A stretch of 64,000 nucleotides of DNA from sequence record MN655998.1; one strand, written 5' to 3'. This DNA is from Escherichia phage E26. Below the pieces are notes generated by a model. That model was not told where the DNA came from and searched no databases. It was given only the letters and a program-made list of their open reading frames with translations. Made by a program: the position numbers and the translations under genes. Below, piece by piece: positions 1,209 through 51,933 of this stretch; within the stretch, counting starts at the first letter, position 1, and every line of letters begins with the position of its first letter.

Positions 1209-1237
1209 AGTATAGGGGATCGCGAGATCCCCGTCAA
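1209..1237 (-). promoter_or_regulatory. sigma70-type early promoter (TTGACG-N17-TATACT), palindromic GATC-containing spacer
   Basis: Minus-strand -35 at 1232-1237, -10 at 1209-1214; spacer GGGGATCTCGCGATCCCC is an inverted repeat. Confidence 0.6.
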
Positions 1238-2355: not shown

Positions 2356-2383
2356 ATTATACATTAGCTAATCAGGTTGTCAA
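2356..2383 (-). promoter_or_regulatory. sigma70-type early promoter (TTGACA-N16-TATAAT)
   Basis: Minus-strand -35 at 2378-2383, -10 at 2356-2361; immediately follows a terminator hairpin (PeSL-like arrangement). Confidence 0.65.
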
Positions 2384-2389
2384 CACCCA

Positions 2390-2420
2390 AAAACGAAAAA
2401 GCCGACCCTTTCGGATCGGC
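2390..2420 (-). terminator. rho-independent terminator after nrdD
   Basis: GC hairpin GCCGATCCGAAAGGGTCGGC followed by U-run on minus strand. Confidence 0.7.
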
Positions 2421-2426
2421 TGAAAA

Positions 2427-4858: not shown

Positions 4859-4886
4859 ATTATAGCATACTCCCTTCGCATGTCAA
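4859..4886 (-). promoter_or_regulatory. sigma70-type early promoter, -10 inside a hairpin loop
   Basis: TTGACA (4881-4886) N16 TATAAT (4859-4864); GGGAGTA/TACTCCC stem encloses the -10. Confidence 0.6.
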
Positions 4887-6092: not shown

Positions 6093-6121
6093 ATCTTACT
6101 ACTCCCGTTTCATCATGTCAA
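6093..6121 (-). promoter_or_regulatory. sigma70-type early promoter, -10 inside a hairpin loop
   Basis: TTGACA (6116-6121) N17 TAAGAT (6093-6098); GGGAGTA/TACTCCC stem around the -10. Confidence 0.6.
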
Positions 6122-7003: not shown

Positions 7004-7032
7004 ATTTTACTACTCCCATTTCATGCTGTCAA
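7004..7032 (-). promoter_or_regulatory. sigma70-type early promoter, -10 inside a hairpin loop
   Basis: TTGACA (7027-7032) N17 TAAAAT (7004-7009); GGGAGTA/TACTCCC stem. Confidence 0.6.
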
Positions 7033-7035
7033 CTA

Positions 7036-7509
7036 CTATCTTAATCTTTGTATAAATTGTTTCTTATACTTCTTCGTGATCTCTTCTCTTGTATCAGCGT
7101 CACAATAATCGAAACCTTCTGCGTCCATAATAGCAACCATCTCCGCGCGTGTCAAGCGTGAAAATCGTTTTACTTTATCAACAGCATATTGAGGATGTAA
7201 ATGATTGTTGGTGTAGTCTCCTTTGATGTAATTAACATAGTTTGTCGCCCAAACAACGAAATCAGCACCTAAAGCACCAACACCAAACCGTTTAAAGTCT
7301 CCGGTCAACGATCCTTCTAGGCGGTTGCAACACGAATGAAGCAATCCCCTTACGCGGCCTTGCCCTTTACCATCTAGATCGTGGTCGTGGTCAAGATGGT
7401 TTTTGCTCATATCCTCAAAAAGTGGCAATTGACAAAGGGGGCAAATGCCCCCCTGTTTTTCGAATAGTTCTTGTTTGTACTCTTTAGCACTCTTAGCAGT
7501 CAGTAACAT
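7036..7509 (-). CDS. 49: endonuclease VII (Holliday junction resolvase, T4 gp49-like)
   Basis: Cys-rich zinc motif and HLDHDH motif recalled from T4 endonuclease VII; ATG at 7509 with GGAGGG RBS (track start is TTG). Confidence 0.85.
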   Translation of the reverse strand: MLLTAKSAKEYKQELFEKQGGICPLCQLPLFEDMSKNHLDHDHDLDGKGQGRVRGLLHSCCNRLEGSLTGDFKRFGVGALGADFVVWATNYVNYIKGDYTNNHLHPQYAVDKVKRFSRLTRAEMVAIMDAEGFDYCDADTREEITKKYKKQFIQRLR

Positions 7510-7533
7510 AAATTCACCCTCCAAAGAAGGTAT

Positions 7534-7823: not shown

Positions 7824-8636
7824 TCAATCTACGTTAGTTACATAAACTTCTTGCGTATCAGAAGACTTGCCACCTGAACGGTCTAGGCAATAGGTCTTAT
7901 TCAACAGGACGCAGTTTAAATCATTCCGCTTGATAAAGTCAAGAAGATGATCGTTTACCTTTCCCTTATGATGCGTGACATTACTGATACCAAACTGAAA
8001 ACCACGCGCCATAATAGATTCCACCCACCGATAGAATTTAATCTCTTCCTCGTCACTCCAGAACTTATTATATTCCGCAGAAGTGATAAGGTACGGCGGG
8101 TCCAAATAAACGAAATCACCTGGCAAGATCTCGATCTCGTCATAACGACCAGACGTAAAACTGATTCGACCGTCTTTGTTTTCTTCCTTAAAATTCAGGA
8201 CACGCTCTACCGCGTTTTCGTTAAAAGTCCGGCGACCAAAATTAGCATTAAATTCGCCCTTTCGGTTATGGCGGTTAATGTTGCTAAAACTGTGCTGAAT
8301 CAACACAAACAGCGATAGCGGATCTGGATTCTCGTTATACTTCTTACGGAATGCCATGTAAGCGTCTTTATCATCACGAGACAAACCATTTTCGGAAATA
8401 ATCCGATTGATTGTAGAAACCGGATCAGGACACGCATCAATGGCCTTGTAAGCGTCAATTAAACGATGGTCATAGTCATTAGCCAACACATCACCTTCGA
8501 CGTACAGAGACACGCTCAAACCGCCACAAAAGGCATCAACAAAGCGGTTATAGTGCTTAGGGAAATACTTACTAACACCTGGCAATAGCTTTTCCTTATT
8601 GCCAGTATAGGGAATTAAACCTAATGCTTTCTTCAT
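7824..8636 (-). CDS. dam: DNA adenine methyltransferase Dam (GATC-type, DPPY motif)
   Basis: 270 aa; IPYTGNK, FCGGLSV and DFVYLDPPY motifs matching T4 Dam; ATG at 8636. Confidence 0.88.
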   Translation of the reverse strand: MKKALGLIPYTGNKEKLLPGVSKYFPKHYNRFVDAFCGGLSVSLYVEGDVLANDYDHRLIDAYKAIDACPDPVSTINRIISENGLSRDDKDAYMAFRKKYNENPDPLSLFVLIQHSFSNINRHNRKGEFNANFGRRTFNENAVERVLNFKEENKDGRISFTSGRYDEIEILPGDFVYLDPPYLITSAEYNKFWSDEEEIKFYRWVESIMARGFQFGISNVTHHKGKVNDHLLDFIKRNDLNCVLLNKTYCLDRSGGKSSDTQEVYVTNVD

Positions 8637-10228: not shown

Positions 10229-10257
10229 ATTATAGGATAACCGCATTTTCATGTCAA
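10229..10257 (-). promoter_or_regulatory. sigma70-type early promoter (TTGACA-N17-TATAAT)
   Basis: Minus-strand -35 at 10252-10257, -10 at 10229-10234. Confidence 0.6.
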
Positions 10258-10582: not shown

Positions 10583-10861
10583 TTACATGTCTTGCAGTGC
10601 GTAGAAGCATTTTTCTTCATAGTCATAGAAAATGTCAAAGTATGCTTTTTCTACATACTCGCCATTGATCCAAGCGGCAGTAACAATCAGGGTAGTCCAG
10701 TTAGATCCGCTCTCAACGGTAAAGGTTTTAATACCCAGCTTCACAGCAAGGTCACGCGCAAACTGGTCGCAACCACGGCAGGAAGTGATATTGGAAGTTT
10801 TGATTTTGATGCCACCGCGAGTTTTAGAAATTTCTACTTTAGCGAAAGACAGGTTGCTCAT
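10583..10861 (-). CDS. hypothetical protein
   Basis: ATG at 10861 preceded by AAGGAGAATCAAA leader. Confidence 0.5.
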   Translation of the reverse strand: MSNLSFAKVEISKTRGGIKIKTSNITSCRGCDQFARDLAVKLGIKTFTVESGSNWTTLIVTAAWINGEYVEKAYFDIFYDYEEKCFYALQDM

Positions 10862-10904: not shown

Positions 10905-10933
10905 AGTATAGGGGATACGCGATCCCCTGTCAA
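10905..10933 (-). promoter_or_regulatory. sigma70-type early promoter (TTGACA-N17-TATACT), palindromic spacer
   Basis: Spacer GGGGATCGCGTATCCCC inverted repeat containing GATC. Confidence 0.6.
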
Positions 10934-13422: not shown

Positions 13423-13450
13423 ATTATAGCACTATGATTTTCATTGTCAA
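13423..13450 (-). promoter_or_regulatory. sigma70-type early promoter (TTGACA-N16-TATAAT)
   Basis: -35 at 13445-13450, -10 at 13423-13428; preceded by terminator hairpin. Confidence 0.65.
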
Positions 13451-14328: not shown

Positions 14329-14550
14329 TTAGATGACCTCGGCTTCACCATCCAGGAAGAAAGACCATGTTTTGTTAGGATAGCGAAGCGCCCAAGATTC
14401 GGCAGTCTTAACACCAGCTTCGAACAATTGACGGCTGGTTACTTTAGCCATACCATCTTCGATGGCAACGTTTTCAATAATCATCGGGTACTTAGCGCCA
14501 CGCATGAAACCGAAACCAGCGGAAGATTTGATAATTTTAACAGTTGCCAT
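14329..14550 (-). CDS. hypothetical protein, paralog family B
   Basis: KIIKSSAGFGFM...PMIIE...AGV resembles 11507..11980 pair. Confidence 0.5.
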   Translation of the reverse strand: MATVKIIKSSAGFGFMRGAKYPMIIENVAIEDGMAKVTSRQLFEAGVKTAESWALRYPNKTWSFFLDGEAEVI

Positions 14551-14593: not shown

Positions 14594-14622
14594 ATTATGC
14601 ATTAACACCGGATCGCTGTCAA
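14594..14622 (-). promoter_or_regulatory. sigma70-type early promoter (TTGACA-N17-CATAAT)
   Basis: -35 at 14617-14622, -10 at 14594-14599; conserved ATCGAAACGA leader downstream. Confidence 0.6.
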
Positions 14623-14640
14623 CACTTTCTAAGAAAAATT

Positions 14641-15835: not shown

Positions 15836-15864
15836 ATTATGCTATACCCTATTCCGGTTGTCAA
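15836..15864 (-). promoter_or_regulatory. sigma70-type early promoter (TTGACA-N17-CATAAT)
   Basis: -35 at 15859-15864, -10 at 15836-15841; preceded by terminator hairpin. Confidence 0.65.
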
Positions 15865-25824: not shown

Positions 25825-25853
25825 ATTATGCTATACACCCTCTCGTGTGTCAA
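25825..25853 (-). promoter_or_regulatory. sigma70-type early promoter (TTGACA-N17-CATAAT), -10 in hairpin
   Basis: -35 at 25848-25853, -10 at 25825-25830; GGGTGTA/TACACCC stem around -10. Confidence 0.6.
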
Positions 25854-26257: not shown

Positions 26258-26485
26258 TTATAGTTGATCAGCAATGTATGCGGTGCATTTGCGGAGTTTA
26301 GCCATAGCACCACCTTTCATGTCGCTTACGCCTACAATGTTCATGATCTCTAAGCGATCAGCCGGATTCAGTCTAGTAGCCCAGATCTGGTTAGCCAGTT
26401 CCATTTTACCCATCTGCGGTTCCATCTCAAACAGTTCGCGCTCAAAGTCGATAATTTCTTTTGCTGCGTCTTTAAAGTTAATCAT
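26258..26485 (-). CDS. hypothetical small protein
   Basis: ATG at 26485 preceded by GGGAGAATCAAA leader. Confidence 0.45.
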   Translation of the reverse strand: MINFKDAAKEIIDFERELFEMEPQMGKMELANQIWATRLNPADRLEIMNIVGVSDMKGGAMAKLRKCTAYIADQL

Positions 26486-26514: not shown

Positions 26515-26543
26515 ATTGTAGGGGAGTTATCCTCCCCTGTCAA
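26515..26543 (-). promoter_or_regulatory. sigma70-type early promoter (TTGACA-N17-TACAAT), palindromic spacer
   Basis: Spacer GGGGAGGATAACTCCCC is a near-perfect inverted repeat. Confidence 0.55.
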
Positions 26544-26551
26544 CACTTTTA

Positions 26552-26737
26552 TCAGAAATATGCAATATAGTTTGCCAGTCCTACAGAGTCATCATTCGGC
26601 ATTGCTTTTACTGCCAGTTCAAACCCTGCTTCAACTTTCTGTTTAGCGGATTCTTCGTTATAACCCCAGATTACCAGAATAGCTACTACGTTTTCTTTGC
26701 TTACTGCTTTCAGTGCTTTAGTGATGCGACGTGCCAT
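26552..26737 (-). CDS. hypothetical small protein
   Basis: ORF with ATG at 26737 behind GGAGAATCAA leader. Confidence 0.4.
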   Translation of the reverse strand: MARRITKALKAVSKENVVAILVIWGYNEESAKQKVEAGFELAVKAMPNDDSVGLANYIAYF

Positions 26738-26783: not shown

Positions 26784-26812
26784 ATTATGCTATAGGCCGG
26801 ATCTGGTGTCAA
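26784..26812 (-). promoter_or_regulatory. sigma70-type early promoter (TTGACA-N17-CATAAT)
   Basis: -35 at 26807-26812, -10 at 26784-26789; spacer contains GATC. Confidence 0.6.
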
Positions 26813-26837: not shown

Positions 26838-26866
26838 AATAAAAAAGCCACTCCGAAGAGTGGCTT
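26838..26866 (-). terminator. rho-independent terminator
   Basis: Hairpin AGCCACTC-TTCG-GAGTGGCT followed by U-run on minus strand. Confidence 0.7.
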
Positions 26867-28327: not shown

Positions 28328-28356
28328 ATCTTACTACCCCCGTTTCATGTTGTCAA
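28328..28356 (-). promoter_or_regulatory. sigma70-type early promoter, -10 inside a hairpin loop
   Basis: TTGACA (28351-28356) N17 TAAGAT (28328-28333); GGGGGTA/TACCCCC stem. Confidence 0.6.
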
Positions 28357-28778: not shown

Positions 28779-28807
28779 ATTATGCTATAGTAGTTTATGG
28801 TTGTCAA
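28779..28807 (-). promoter_or_regulatory. sigma70-type early promoter (TTGACA-N17-CATAAT)
   Basis: -35 at 28802-28807, -10 at 28779-28784; preceded by terminator hairpin. Confidence 0.65.
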
Positions 28808-41968: not shown

Positions 41969-41997
41969 TTGACAGTCTTGTCTGGTAAAGGTATAAT
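41969..41997 (+). promoter_or_regulatory. sigma70-type promoter (TTGACA-N17-TATAAT) on plus strand inside late region
   Basis: Perfect -35 and -10 hexamers with 17-nt spacer 30 nt upstream of the inserted ORF at 42027. Confidence 0.7.
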
Positions 41998-50975: not shown

Positions 50976-50984
50976 TGTTTACAA

Positions 50985-51021
50985 TCCGTTCTCGTTTATG
51001 TATAATCAAGGCGAGAACGGA
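50985..51021 (+). promoter_or_regulatory. 10-bp stem-loop upstream of homing endonuclease start
   Basis: TCCGTTCTCG/CGAGAACGGA stem; loop contains TATAAT-like hexamer; RBS lies just 3' of stem. Confidence 0.5.
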
Positions 51022-51036
51022 TATAGGAGTTTAACA

Positions 51037-51933
51037 ATGAATCATTATGTGTATAAAATAACCAACAAATTAAATGGTAAAATCTATATCGGCGTCCGTA
51101 GCTGTGATTGCGATATCGACAAAGATCCTTATATGGGTAGTGGGGTATTAATTAAAAAAGCTATCCATACTCATGGAGTTGAAAATTTTCACAAAGAAAT
51201 TCTCGAAACATTTGAAACAAGAGAAGAAGCTAATCAAGAAGAAGCCAGATTAGTGACACTAGATTTTGTTAACCGACAAGACACATACAATCTAATTGAA
51301 GGTGGTCTGGGTGGTTGCTACTGGAATACATTTTCAGAAGAAAAAAAGGAAGAGATCAAGAACAAATTAAGACAACATAAACCAGATCCAGAACAATTAA
51401 GAAAATTACATGAATCAAATAGAGGCGTTCCGCGTTCGGAAGAGACTAAATTGAAAGTTAGCCGAGCAAATAAAGGAAGAATCCACACGGAGCAGTCAAG
51501 AAAAAACATGTCCGAAGGGCGAAAAGGTATGGTGTTTTCAGAAGAACACAGAAAAAATATATCAAAAGCAAATGTAGGACGTGTACATTCTCCAGAAACA
51601 TTGGAAAAAATAAGATTAGGGAATTTAGGAAAAAAATTAAAACCAGAAACAATAGAAAAACTAAGAGAGGTTGCCAAGAATCGTCCTCCTGTCTCAGAAG
51701 AAACAAGAAGAAAACTATCAGAGGCAGCAAAGAAACAAATAAGAAACTTCGGGGATAAAATAAGTAAAGGGAAAATAGATAAACCTATATCAACGAGCAA
51801 AACAGTGTATGCGGAAGGTGTTGAATATCCTTCTGTTAGTGTTTGTGCAAGGGCATATGGGATTTCAAACACATCAATATTGAAGAGAATTAATTCAACG
51901 TCAGAAAAATGGAAGGAGTTTTATTATGTTTGA
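51037..51933 (+). CDS. GIY-YIG homing endonuclease (Seg-like) with tandem NUMOD3-type repeats
   Basis: N-terminus [17 protein letters not shown] is a GIY-YIG motif; repeated ExxKxKxS/R units; ATG at 51037 with AGGAG RBS. Confidence 0.8.

Follow-up and report, generated by a model that had tools for sequence, protein, structure and literature searches.

Promoter-early stem-loop (PeSL) cassettes are known in numbers of about 50 each from the phages RB49 and phi1 (Arbiol, Comeau, Kutateladze, Adamia and Krisch 2010, Genome Biol Evol 2:140, PMC2839356; Arbiol et al. in what follows); Comeau et al. 2014 added examples from T4/PST and KVP40/nt-1. As described, a cassette is made up of an AT-rich region with the stop codon of the upstream gene, a consensus sigma-70 early promoter, a stem-loop, and an ORFan's Shine-Dalgarno (SD) sequence and start codon. 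The stem-loop, which is "frequently polyG followed by polyC", takes five positions relative to the promoter and is most commonly found between -35 and -10 or over -10. The stem-loop of PeSL211/210 lowered downstream lacZ expression about as strongly as rrnB T1, while PeSL206/205 is a very strong promoter (~13,000 Miller units). When flanking PeSLs recombine, ORFans are excised as mini-circles; one such crossover was placed in the loop, and Arbiol et al. speculate that a DNA-binding protein may promote this recombination (PMC2839356).

Rho-independent terminators and the morons of lambdoid phages are related in part. PeSLs with the stem-loop in the promoter spacer resemble the former in presenting a GC-rich hairpin just past a stop codon, and one PeSL comes close to rrnB T1 in effect; unlike them, this class lacks an uninterrupted U-tract, and the -10 hexamer (UAUACU, UAUAAU) stands there instead. 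With morons, PeSL cassettes share the character of self-contained units which express accessory genes in transcriptional isolation from adjacent genes. They differ from morons in that the regulatory sequence is itself a recombination substrate, and in that promoter and hairpin are physically fused (PMC2839356).

The present analysis concerns 64,000 nucleotides of Escherichia phage E26 (sequence record MN655998.1), referred to below as the window. Five promoters in it had been singled out for spacers described as GATC-containing palindromes, and the original prediction was that these act, in a phage which encodes Dam, as methylation-sensitive switches or as operators of a dimeric regulator. We consider it likely that the five sites are PeSL cassettes, in which the hairpin serves as a terminator or attenuator in read-through RNA. 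The feature is thus already known, as a PeSL cassette in a phage genus known to bear PeSLs. With those of RB49 and phi1, the sites share the genus, the gene junctions, the promoter type, the AT-rich upstream region, the stem-loop positions, the SD-ATG of an ORFan, and the setting in hyperplastic regions, and there is no essential difference between them.

Genomic setting

The window belongs to an RB49-like Krischvirus (Straboviridae), with ~98% identity to RB49 and kaaroe; over its first 8 kb, identity is 97-98% to RB49, kaaroe, GEC-3S, and ~55 other Krischvirus genomes. Positions 1-32,000 are collinear with RB49 32,099-64,000, a stretch of minus-strand early genes which encode mostly small hypothetical proteins and include nrdG, nrdD, gene 49, nrdC, and dam. 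The PeSL-bearing region of the window corresponds to RB49p053-p118, where hypothetical proteins again predominate. The presence of a phage-encoded Dam, on which the original prediction relied, was confirmed:

7824..8636, minus strand: dam, D12-class N6-adenine DNA methyltransferase, 270 aa (Pfam PF02086, E=1.5e-29)

The RB49 orthologue of this ORF is annotated dam, and the protein is 100% identical to the Dam of phage ELT4. An IMG/VR search with the Dam protein returned two Krischvirus contigs only, and the comparison genomes were taken from GenBank phage records. Across the window GATC is not avoided (366 observed versus 339 expected under a Markov model).

Five promoters and their stem-loops

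The five promoters exist as sequences, each upstream of a small ORFan gene, and are of a strong sigma-70 type, with 10-11 of 12 hexamer positions matched at every site. All are located on the minus strand, and not on the plus strand, as the earlier reading of them had implied. Together with their stem-loops, they comprise:

1209..1237, minus strand: PeSL early promoter TTGACG-GGGATCTCGCGATCCCC-TATACT, 17-nt spacer, driving a 50-aa DUF7170 ORF at 1014-1166
1215..1232, minus strand: spacer stem-loop GGGGATC-TCGC-GATCCCC, 7-bp stem, 4-nt loop, GATC in both arms (DNA fold)
10905..10933, minus strand: PeSL early promoter TTGACA-GGGGATCGCGTATCCCC-TATACT, 17-nt spacer, driving a 92-aa ORFan at 10583-10861
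10910-10928, minus strand: hairpin (A)GGGGAT-CGCGT-ATCCCC(T) within the spacer of the 10905 promoter, one GATC (DNA fold)
14594..14622, minus strand: PeSL early promoter TTGACA-GCGATCCGGTGTTAATG-CATAAT, 17-nt spacer, driving a 73-aa ORFan at 14329-14550
~14599-14625, minus strand: weak hairpin GTGTTGACA...TGTTAATGC over the -35 box of the 14594 promoter, GATC at the apex (z=-1.45)
26515..26543, minus strand: PeSL early promoter TTGACA-GGGGAGGATAACTCCCC-TACAAT, 17-nt spacer, driving a 75-aa ORFan at 26258-26485
26520-26538, minus strand: hairpin (A)GGGGAG-GATAA-CTCCCC(T) within the spacer of the 26515 promoter, without GATC (RNA and DNA fold)
26784..26812, minus strand: PeSL early promoter TTGACA-CCAGATCCGGCCTATAG-CATAAT, driving a 61-aa DUF7421 ORF at 26552-26737
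26840..26866, minus strand: hairpin AAGCCACTC-TTCG-GAGTGGCTT with a T-run behind it, a canonical intrinsic terminator located upstream of the 26784 promoter (terminator scan)

At each of the five, GGAG(A)ATCAAA and the ATG of an ORF of 50-92 aa follow 30-50 nt past the -10 box, and the products of these genes have no Pfam family or a DUF only. AT-rich stretches, such as aaaaaatttaaaataaatgc and aaaatcataaaaagttg, lie ahead of the -35 box. The stop codon of the upstream gene precedes that box by 4-18 nt at four of the promoters (by 4 nt at 1209-1237), while the fifth, at 26784, is of the upstream-terminator class and has a wider gap. The sites have orthologues at matching gene junctions in up to eight Krischvirus genomes, RB49 included, and the orthologues of all five, that of 1209-1237 among them, are annotated as promoters in GEC-3S.

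The description of the spacers as perfect palindromes did not hold. Each of those at 1209, 10905, and 26515 is an interrupted inverted repeat, in which arms of 7, 6, and 6 bp, respectively, enclose a non-symmetric centre of 4-5 nt. Folded as DNA, each of the three was more stable than all of its 200 shuffles, the hairpin at 1215-1232 reaching -6.7 kcal/mol; as RNA, the 26515 hairpin folds at -21 kcal/mol (z=-5.0). Inverted repeats are thus present in three of the spacers, with the stem-loop between -35 and -10, but the 14594 promoter has its weak stem-loop over -35, and the spacer at 26784 contains GATC and gave no hairpin on folding (z=+0.5). The stem-loop of the latter promoter lies in the upstream AT-rich region: the terminator at 26840-26866 corresponds to the PeSL subclass described as "stem-loop in the AT-rich region", and GEC-3S carries a terminator annotation at the orthologous position. 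As for GATC, the spacers at 1209, 10905, 14594, and 26784 carry it as claimed, and that at 26515 does not.

Inventory and classes

PeSLs have near-consensus sigma-70 -35 and -10 hexamers separated by a spacer of 16-18 nt. An inventory of PeSL-like promoters yielded 21 for the window and 58 for a complete RB49 genome. Further PeSLs of the window fall into two classes:

4859..4886, minus strand: PeSL of the class in which the stem-loop overlaps -10, GGGAGTATGCTATAATACTCCC (promoter inventory)
6093-6121, 7004-7032, 10229-10257, 20479-20507, 25825-25853, and 28328-28356: further PeSLs with the stem-loop overlapping -10
2356..2383, minus strand: PeSL of the class with a canonical terminator just upstream and no internal hairpin (promoter inventory, terminator scan)
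13423-13450, 15836-15864, 28779-28807, and 41969-41997 (the last on the plus strand): further upstream-terminator PeSLs

Several stem families recur among the PeSLs, namely GGGGATC/GATCCCC (~7 copies, with differing loops), GGGGAG/CTCCCC, and CGGGGA-GAAA-TCCCCG, and the class overlapping -10 employs other stems (GGGAGT, GGGGGT, GGGTGT, and GCGGTT).

The PeSLs assayed in the literature were assigned to sequences by equating the ORF numbers of the paper with RB49 locus tags. The RB49p211/p210 junction reads TTGACA-GGGGATCACGTATCCCC-TATACT and the RB49p206/p205 junction TTGACA-GGGGATCGGTGATCCCC-TATAAT, and by this numbering the assayed spacers are identical, or nearly so, to those flagged here. 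If ORF numbers and locus tags do coincide, an element of the GGGGATC type has therefore already been assayed, for both promoter and terminator activity.

Internal hairpins and upstream terminators

Internal hairpins and upstream canonical terminators stand in an either-or relation. Among the promoters of the window, none has both, 11 have the hairpin only, six the terminator only, and four neither (Fisher P=0.004); the corresponding numbers for RB49 are one, 26, 11, and 20 (Fisher P=0.003). The median gap between stop codon and -35 box is 3-8 nt in the internal-hairpin classes versus 44-48 nt in the upstream-terminator class. An alternation of this kind, which tracks the size of the intergenic gap, strengthens the reading of PeSL stem-loops as substitutes for terminators. 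Both this relation and the inversion of the 1209 loop described below were found here and are unreported in the PeSL papers.

The spacer hairpins have no canonical U-tract. Their tails, UAUACUAUAU or ACAAUACAAC, were not flagged in a terminator scan which called for five T within the eight bases after the hairpin, and which the upstream terminators passed. That the spacer hairpins are canonical intrinsic terminators is ruled out by tails such as TATACTATAT, in which there is no T-run. "Attenuator or 3'-end structure" is consequently a safer label than "intrinsic terminator", and, given these tails, the term terminator is owed to a single published experiment, in which one stem-loop was assayed with lacZ. 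The reduction reported in that assay could instead reflect RNA processing.

Variation among orthologues and in unrelated phages

Orthologous sites were compared across eight Krischvirus genomes. The stem at 1209 is constant, and its loop reads GCGA in six of the seven other genomes which have the junction; in the window (1222-1225) and in one RB49 isolate the loop is the reverse complement, TCGC. Among the 10905 orthologues, variation affects the loop and 3' arm (GCGTAT, ACGTAT, GGTGAT, and GGCGAT), and the variant spacers are mosaics which match those of other PeSLs exactly. Spacer mosaicism at 10905 and loop inversion at 1209 fit exchange both between and within PeSLs. GATC is itself subject to turnover. 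It is kept among the orthologues at 1209, at 26784, and in the 5' arm at 10905, toggles between GATC and TATC at the 3' site of 10905, and is gone from the 14594 orthologue in GEC-3S (GCGTTCCGG); gains were observed in the 15836 orthologue in GEC-3S and in the 20479 orthologue in JSE and LF73P4.

Outside Krischvirus, a scan of IMG/VR with the pattern TTGAC(N)GGGG-N9/10-CCCCTA yielded 81 unique matches. At least two extra Watson-Crick pairs past the G4/C4 clamp were present in 27% of these (22), versus 6% expected. Most of the 22 hairpin-bearing matches have a TAnnnT -10 box, 13 have an SD-ATG downstream, and GATC was found in none of the 22 spacers. The jumbo Salmonella phages Munch, 7t3, and PHA46 have relatives among the contigs with this layout. 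When 34 unique sequences were aligned, the inner stem pairs proved to covary (AU, GC, CG, and UA), and none of 500 shuffles reached the observed score; this covariation extends across Krischvirus paralogues and the contigs of unrelated phages. These results point to pairing, or structure, as the conserved feature, rather than to the GATC sequence. The occurrence of the layout, TTGACA followed by a G4 hairpin, C4, and TAnnnT, in unrelated phages suggests a convergent, space-saving design.

GATC and alternative explanations

Comparison of GATC in promoters with the background gave a mixed outcome for the original prediction, which had proposed such a count. The spacers do show a nominal excess of three to four times the genome rate. 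In the window, four of 21 promoters have GATC in the spacer, at five sites versus 1.67 expected (binomial P=0.07, Poisson P=0.03). For RB49 the count is 14 of 58 promoters, which are paralogous, and for LF73P4 13 of 59, versus ~4.5 expected in either case (nominal P=1e-4 for RB49, and ~1e-4 to 6e-4 over both genomes). The promoters are, however, recombining paralogues, and such counts are therefore not independent. When spacers were clustered by single linkage at no more than six mismatches, a rough control for paralogy, GATC occurred in five of 31 clusters versus 2.4 expected, and seven of the 14 GATC-bearing RB49 spacers belong to a single stem family. The modest excess is probably a by-product of paralogy. 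In the first 100 kb of the Slopekvirus phiKp_11, a T4-like phage which also encodes Dam, only eight promoters passed the filter of the inventory, too few to bear on the question, and these had no GATC versus 0.7 expected.

Two observations count against the PeSL account. At 14594 and 26784, GATC occupies the same position in the spacer although neither promoter has a convincing hairpin there. Moreover, a nominal three- to four-fold excess of GATC in spacers is not itself something that the PeSL model predicts.

In the classic Dam-sensitive promoters of IS10 (pIN), Tn5, dnaA, and P1 cre, GATC falls in the -10 or -35 hexamer, while in pap, agn43, and Mu mom it falls inside a regulator binding site and acts through Lrp or OxyR. 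The promoters considered here are similar in having GATC near a sigma-70 promoter in a Dam-methylated genome. They are dissimilar in that their GATC is a spacer element, located inside or beside a hairpin stem, is turned over among orthologues, and is absent from most sister promoters.

A Dam-dependent switch would require that spacer GATC be selected, and that methylation by phage or host Dam modulate early-promoter strength, directly or via SeqA on hemimethylated DNA, such that early promoters were, for example, turned down once replication starts. The possession of a dam gene and the unmodified cytosine of RB49 DNA (PMC4041780, a Cas9 paper) are in keeping with this, as are the raw spacer counts in RB49 and LF73P4, though these are weakened by paralogy, as the clusters and the share of one stem family indicate. 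No 4-bp palindrome is more over-represented in spacers than GATC, whose rate per position is 0.023 there and 0.006 in the 40 nt that precede -35, but GGAT and ATCC are enriched as much as GATC, and GGGG, CCCC, and GGGA three to five times more. Its start is nearly always at spacer position 3-5, and also at 11 (~-29 to -26 and the mirror copy), and it appears in some six to seven distinct sequence contexts, two of which have no hairpin; against this, about three quarters of PeSLs have no spacer GATC at all. Nor does any GATC fall in a -35 or -10 hexamer, the count for hexamers plus spacer being that for the spacer alone, and no regulator binding site is known where it does fall. Coupled with the gains and losses among orthologues, the covarying stems, and the lack of GATC in the hairpin spacers of unrelated phages, these points leave the proposed methylation-sensitive switch unsupported and, in our estimation, highly improbable. 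The PeSL papers make no comment on GATC or Dam, and a literature search on RB49 with GATC or Dam returned the Cas9 paper only, with nothing tying Dam to these promoters. There is a correspondingly slim prospect that GATC owes its fixed spacer position, in about one in four Krischvirus early promoters, to selection and not to paralogy, and couples PeSL behaviour to Dam methylation or replication state. If this were true, early promoters could be damped by SeqA on the hemimethylated GATC pairs of freshly replicated DNA, in a T4-like phage which reportedly (Desplats et al. 2002) lacks the MotA middle-mode switch; PeSL recombination could, alternatively, be biased by mismatch repair or nicking directed by GATC.

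The G4/C4 inverted repeat might also be read as a protein site, whether the operator of a dimeric regulator, the other half of the original prediction, or the target of a structure- or sequence-specific protein which promotes PeSL recombination. Its symmetry and shared G4/C4 ends would suit such a site; past the G/C run, however, no half-site is conserved and the inner stem positions covary, while the loops are asymmetric and variable in length. The recombination-promoting protein speculated upon by Arbiol et al., the mapping of crossovers to the loop or to the vicinity of the stem, and the loop flip and spacer mosaicism between genomes would each accord with such a site; no recombinase or regulator candidate was identified. 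An operator is at odds with a stem-loop which takes five positions relative to -35 and -10, uses other stems where it overlaps -10, and has a loop which can be flipped, and the operator claim found no support here. Exclusivity with ordinary terminators points, moreover, to a role at the RNA level, and we regard a protein site as highly improbable. Finally, GC-rich spacers could be self-complementary by accident and contain GATC by accident, an explanation to which the marginal GATC excess of the window taken alone lends itself. It is refuted by shuffle controls and by conservation across genomes, and retains next to no probability: GGGG-N9-CCCC occurs three times in the window versus 0.16 expected, a number matched by none of 100 shuffles (the third copy lies inside gene 49), and GGGGATC-N4-GATCCCC once versus 0.00 expected; the three spacer hairpins are unmatched by any fold shuffle, the elements are conserved across the genus, and other phages show the design again, with covarying stems.

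Discussion

On the PeSL account, each cassette fills the short stretch which separates one early gene from the next, and includes the conserved leader ahead of the SD of a small ORFan. In the flagged subclass, the stop codon lies ~4-15 nt before the -35 box, which leaves no space for a separate terminator, and the stem-loop is accordingly nested in the 17-nt spacer. Because transcription starts downstream of -10, the spacer hairpin is absent from the RNA of its own promoter. It would form only in read-through RNA from the upstream gene, where it most likely acts as a terminator or attenuator which insulates neighbouring cassettes, and it probably also protects the 3' end of the RNA. At the DNA level, the conserved cassette of ~100 bp and its inverted repeat probably offer a substrate for homologous exchange between PeSLs, which would shuffle ORFans and homogenise or flip spacers. 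GATC would then be part of one successful stem family, GGGGATC/GATCCCC, and of a few related spacers; as GATC is its own reverse complement, its presence in one arm of a stem puts a second copy in the other.

For the copies in the window, we infer that selection acts on termination or insulation. The analysis itself shows the identity of the loci with RB49 PeSLs, the hairpin potential, the covariation, the compact geometry, and the exclusivity with upstream terminators; promoter and terminator activity, and the crossover in the loop, are known from published work.

The re-discovery of a documented RB49-type cassette adds little by itself. For phage specialists, two additions may be of use: the either-or relation of internal hairpin and upstream terminator, which tracks the size of the intergenic gap, and the recurrence of the layout, with covarying stems, in unrelated phages.

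Hairpins, terminators and tetranucleotide motifs

Promoter-early stem-loop (PeSL) cassettes almost never combine an internal hairpin with a canonical terminator upstream; one or the other is present (Fisher P ~0.003-0.004, for the promoter set across the window and RB49 isolate OZ035808, L125-L128). The distance from the preceding stop codon to the -35 box tracks this choice, with medians of 3-8 nt for internal hairpins versus 44-48 nt for upstream terminators. We found no statement of such an either/or relation in the PeSL papers.

GATC is also found in the stem of a terminator belonging to the cassette at 2356:

2400-2421 (-), canonical terminator preceding the 2356 promoter, AGCCGATCC-GAAA-GGGTCGGCT

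The motif is therefore common in GC-rich hairpins of this genome generally, beyond promoter spacers. It is nearly missing from the conserved A/C-rich 5' leaders of PeSLs in the window and RB49, where a single site was observed in ~1,850 positions against the ~10 expected at the genome rate. Spacers carry an excess of CCGG too (six promoters in RB49, 1.5 expected).

A composite design unlike the PeSL spacer hairpin was seen in the Slopekvirus phage phiKp_11, where a terminator hairpin (AAAAAGCCC...GGGCTTTTT) and a promoter overlap, such that the hairpin loop contains the -35 hexamer TTGACT and the T-run of the terminator is the promoter spacer:

L136, about 38,489, and joined L136 and L137 coordinate, about 55,242, phiKp_11 composite terminator/promoter

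Variation of the spacer hairpins

Two spacers differ among related phages:

1222-1225, 4-nt loop of hairpin 1215-1232, orientation differing among phages
10911-10927 and orthologues, variable PeSL spacer (compare L135, 4700-4730 and 6270-6300)

On the coding strand, the first loop reads TCGC in the window and in RB49 OZ035808; in RB49 NC_005066, LF73P4, ECD7, GEC-3S, JSE and one IMG/VR contig it is GCGA, which is of the GNRA type. Judged from sequence, TCGC versus GCGA means that the inverted repeat at 1215-1232 has been flipped, which suggests recombination or template switching inside the stem. The second spacer occurs across genomes as GGGGATC-GCG-TATCCCC and with -ACG-TATCCCC, -GGT-GATCCCC or -GGC-GATCCCC after the same left arm; spacers identical to these variants occur in other PeSLs of the same genomes (e.g. 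RB49 PeSL206/205 and PeSL211/210). This variation looks like gene conversion among paralogous cassettes.

Gene 49 and homing endonucleases

The following features lie in gene 49 or belong to homing-endonuclease genes:

7036-7524 (-), gene 49 (endonuclease VII)
7127-7155, promoter-like site within gene 49
7437-7453, third G/C-clamped hairpin, GGGGGCAAATGCCCCCC, within the gene 49 coding sequence
50978-51933 (+), segment carrying the following gene and its promoter
51037-51933 (+), GIY-YIG (SegE-like) and NUMOD3 homing-endonuclease gene, 298 aa
GEC-3S L004 22427-23182 and phiS L133 4732-5487, homing-endonuclease gene of the HNH type, located between nrdC and dam

The hairpin at 7437-7453 looks like an antisense terminator, because a T-run comes next when it is read on the + strand. 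An internal start and a hairpin are known in T4 gene 49, and the hairpin and promoter-like site here may, by analogy, be connected with them.

The GIY-YIG/NUMOD3 gene has its own promoter (TTTACA-N17-TATAAT), with an 11-bp stem (ATCCGTTCTCG...CGAGAACGGAT) extending across the -10 box. Its segment appears to be a mobile insertion, as RB49 OZ035808 and LF73P4 have no counterpart at the same site. The HNH gene is absent from the window (about 7824-7830), RB49 and JSE, and nrdD is interrupted by a homing endonuclease in JSE and phiS.

Distribution beyond Krischvirus

The succession of TTGACA, G4 hairpin, C4 and TAnnnT, then a Shine-Dalgarno sequence and ATG, recurs in IMG/VR phage contigs outside Krischvirus, on different, covarying stems:

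L049, L055, L107, L066, PeSL-like layout, contigs of 170-366 kb
L022, L053, L099, L104, L117; L039, L041, L074, L120, further loci with PeSL-like layout

L049 shares ~68% identity with the jumbo Salmonella phages Munch, 7t3 and PHA46, and L053 resembles 35-kb freshwater phages. As read from these layouts, the promoter-hairpin design extends beyond the T4-like phages covered by the PeSL papers.
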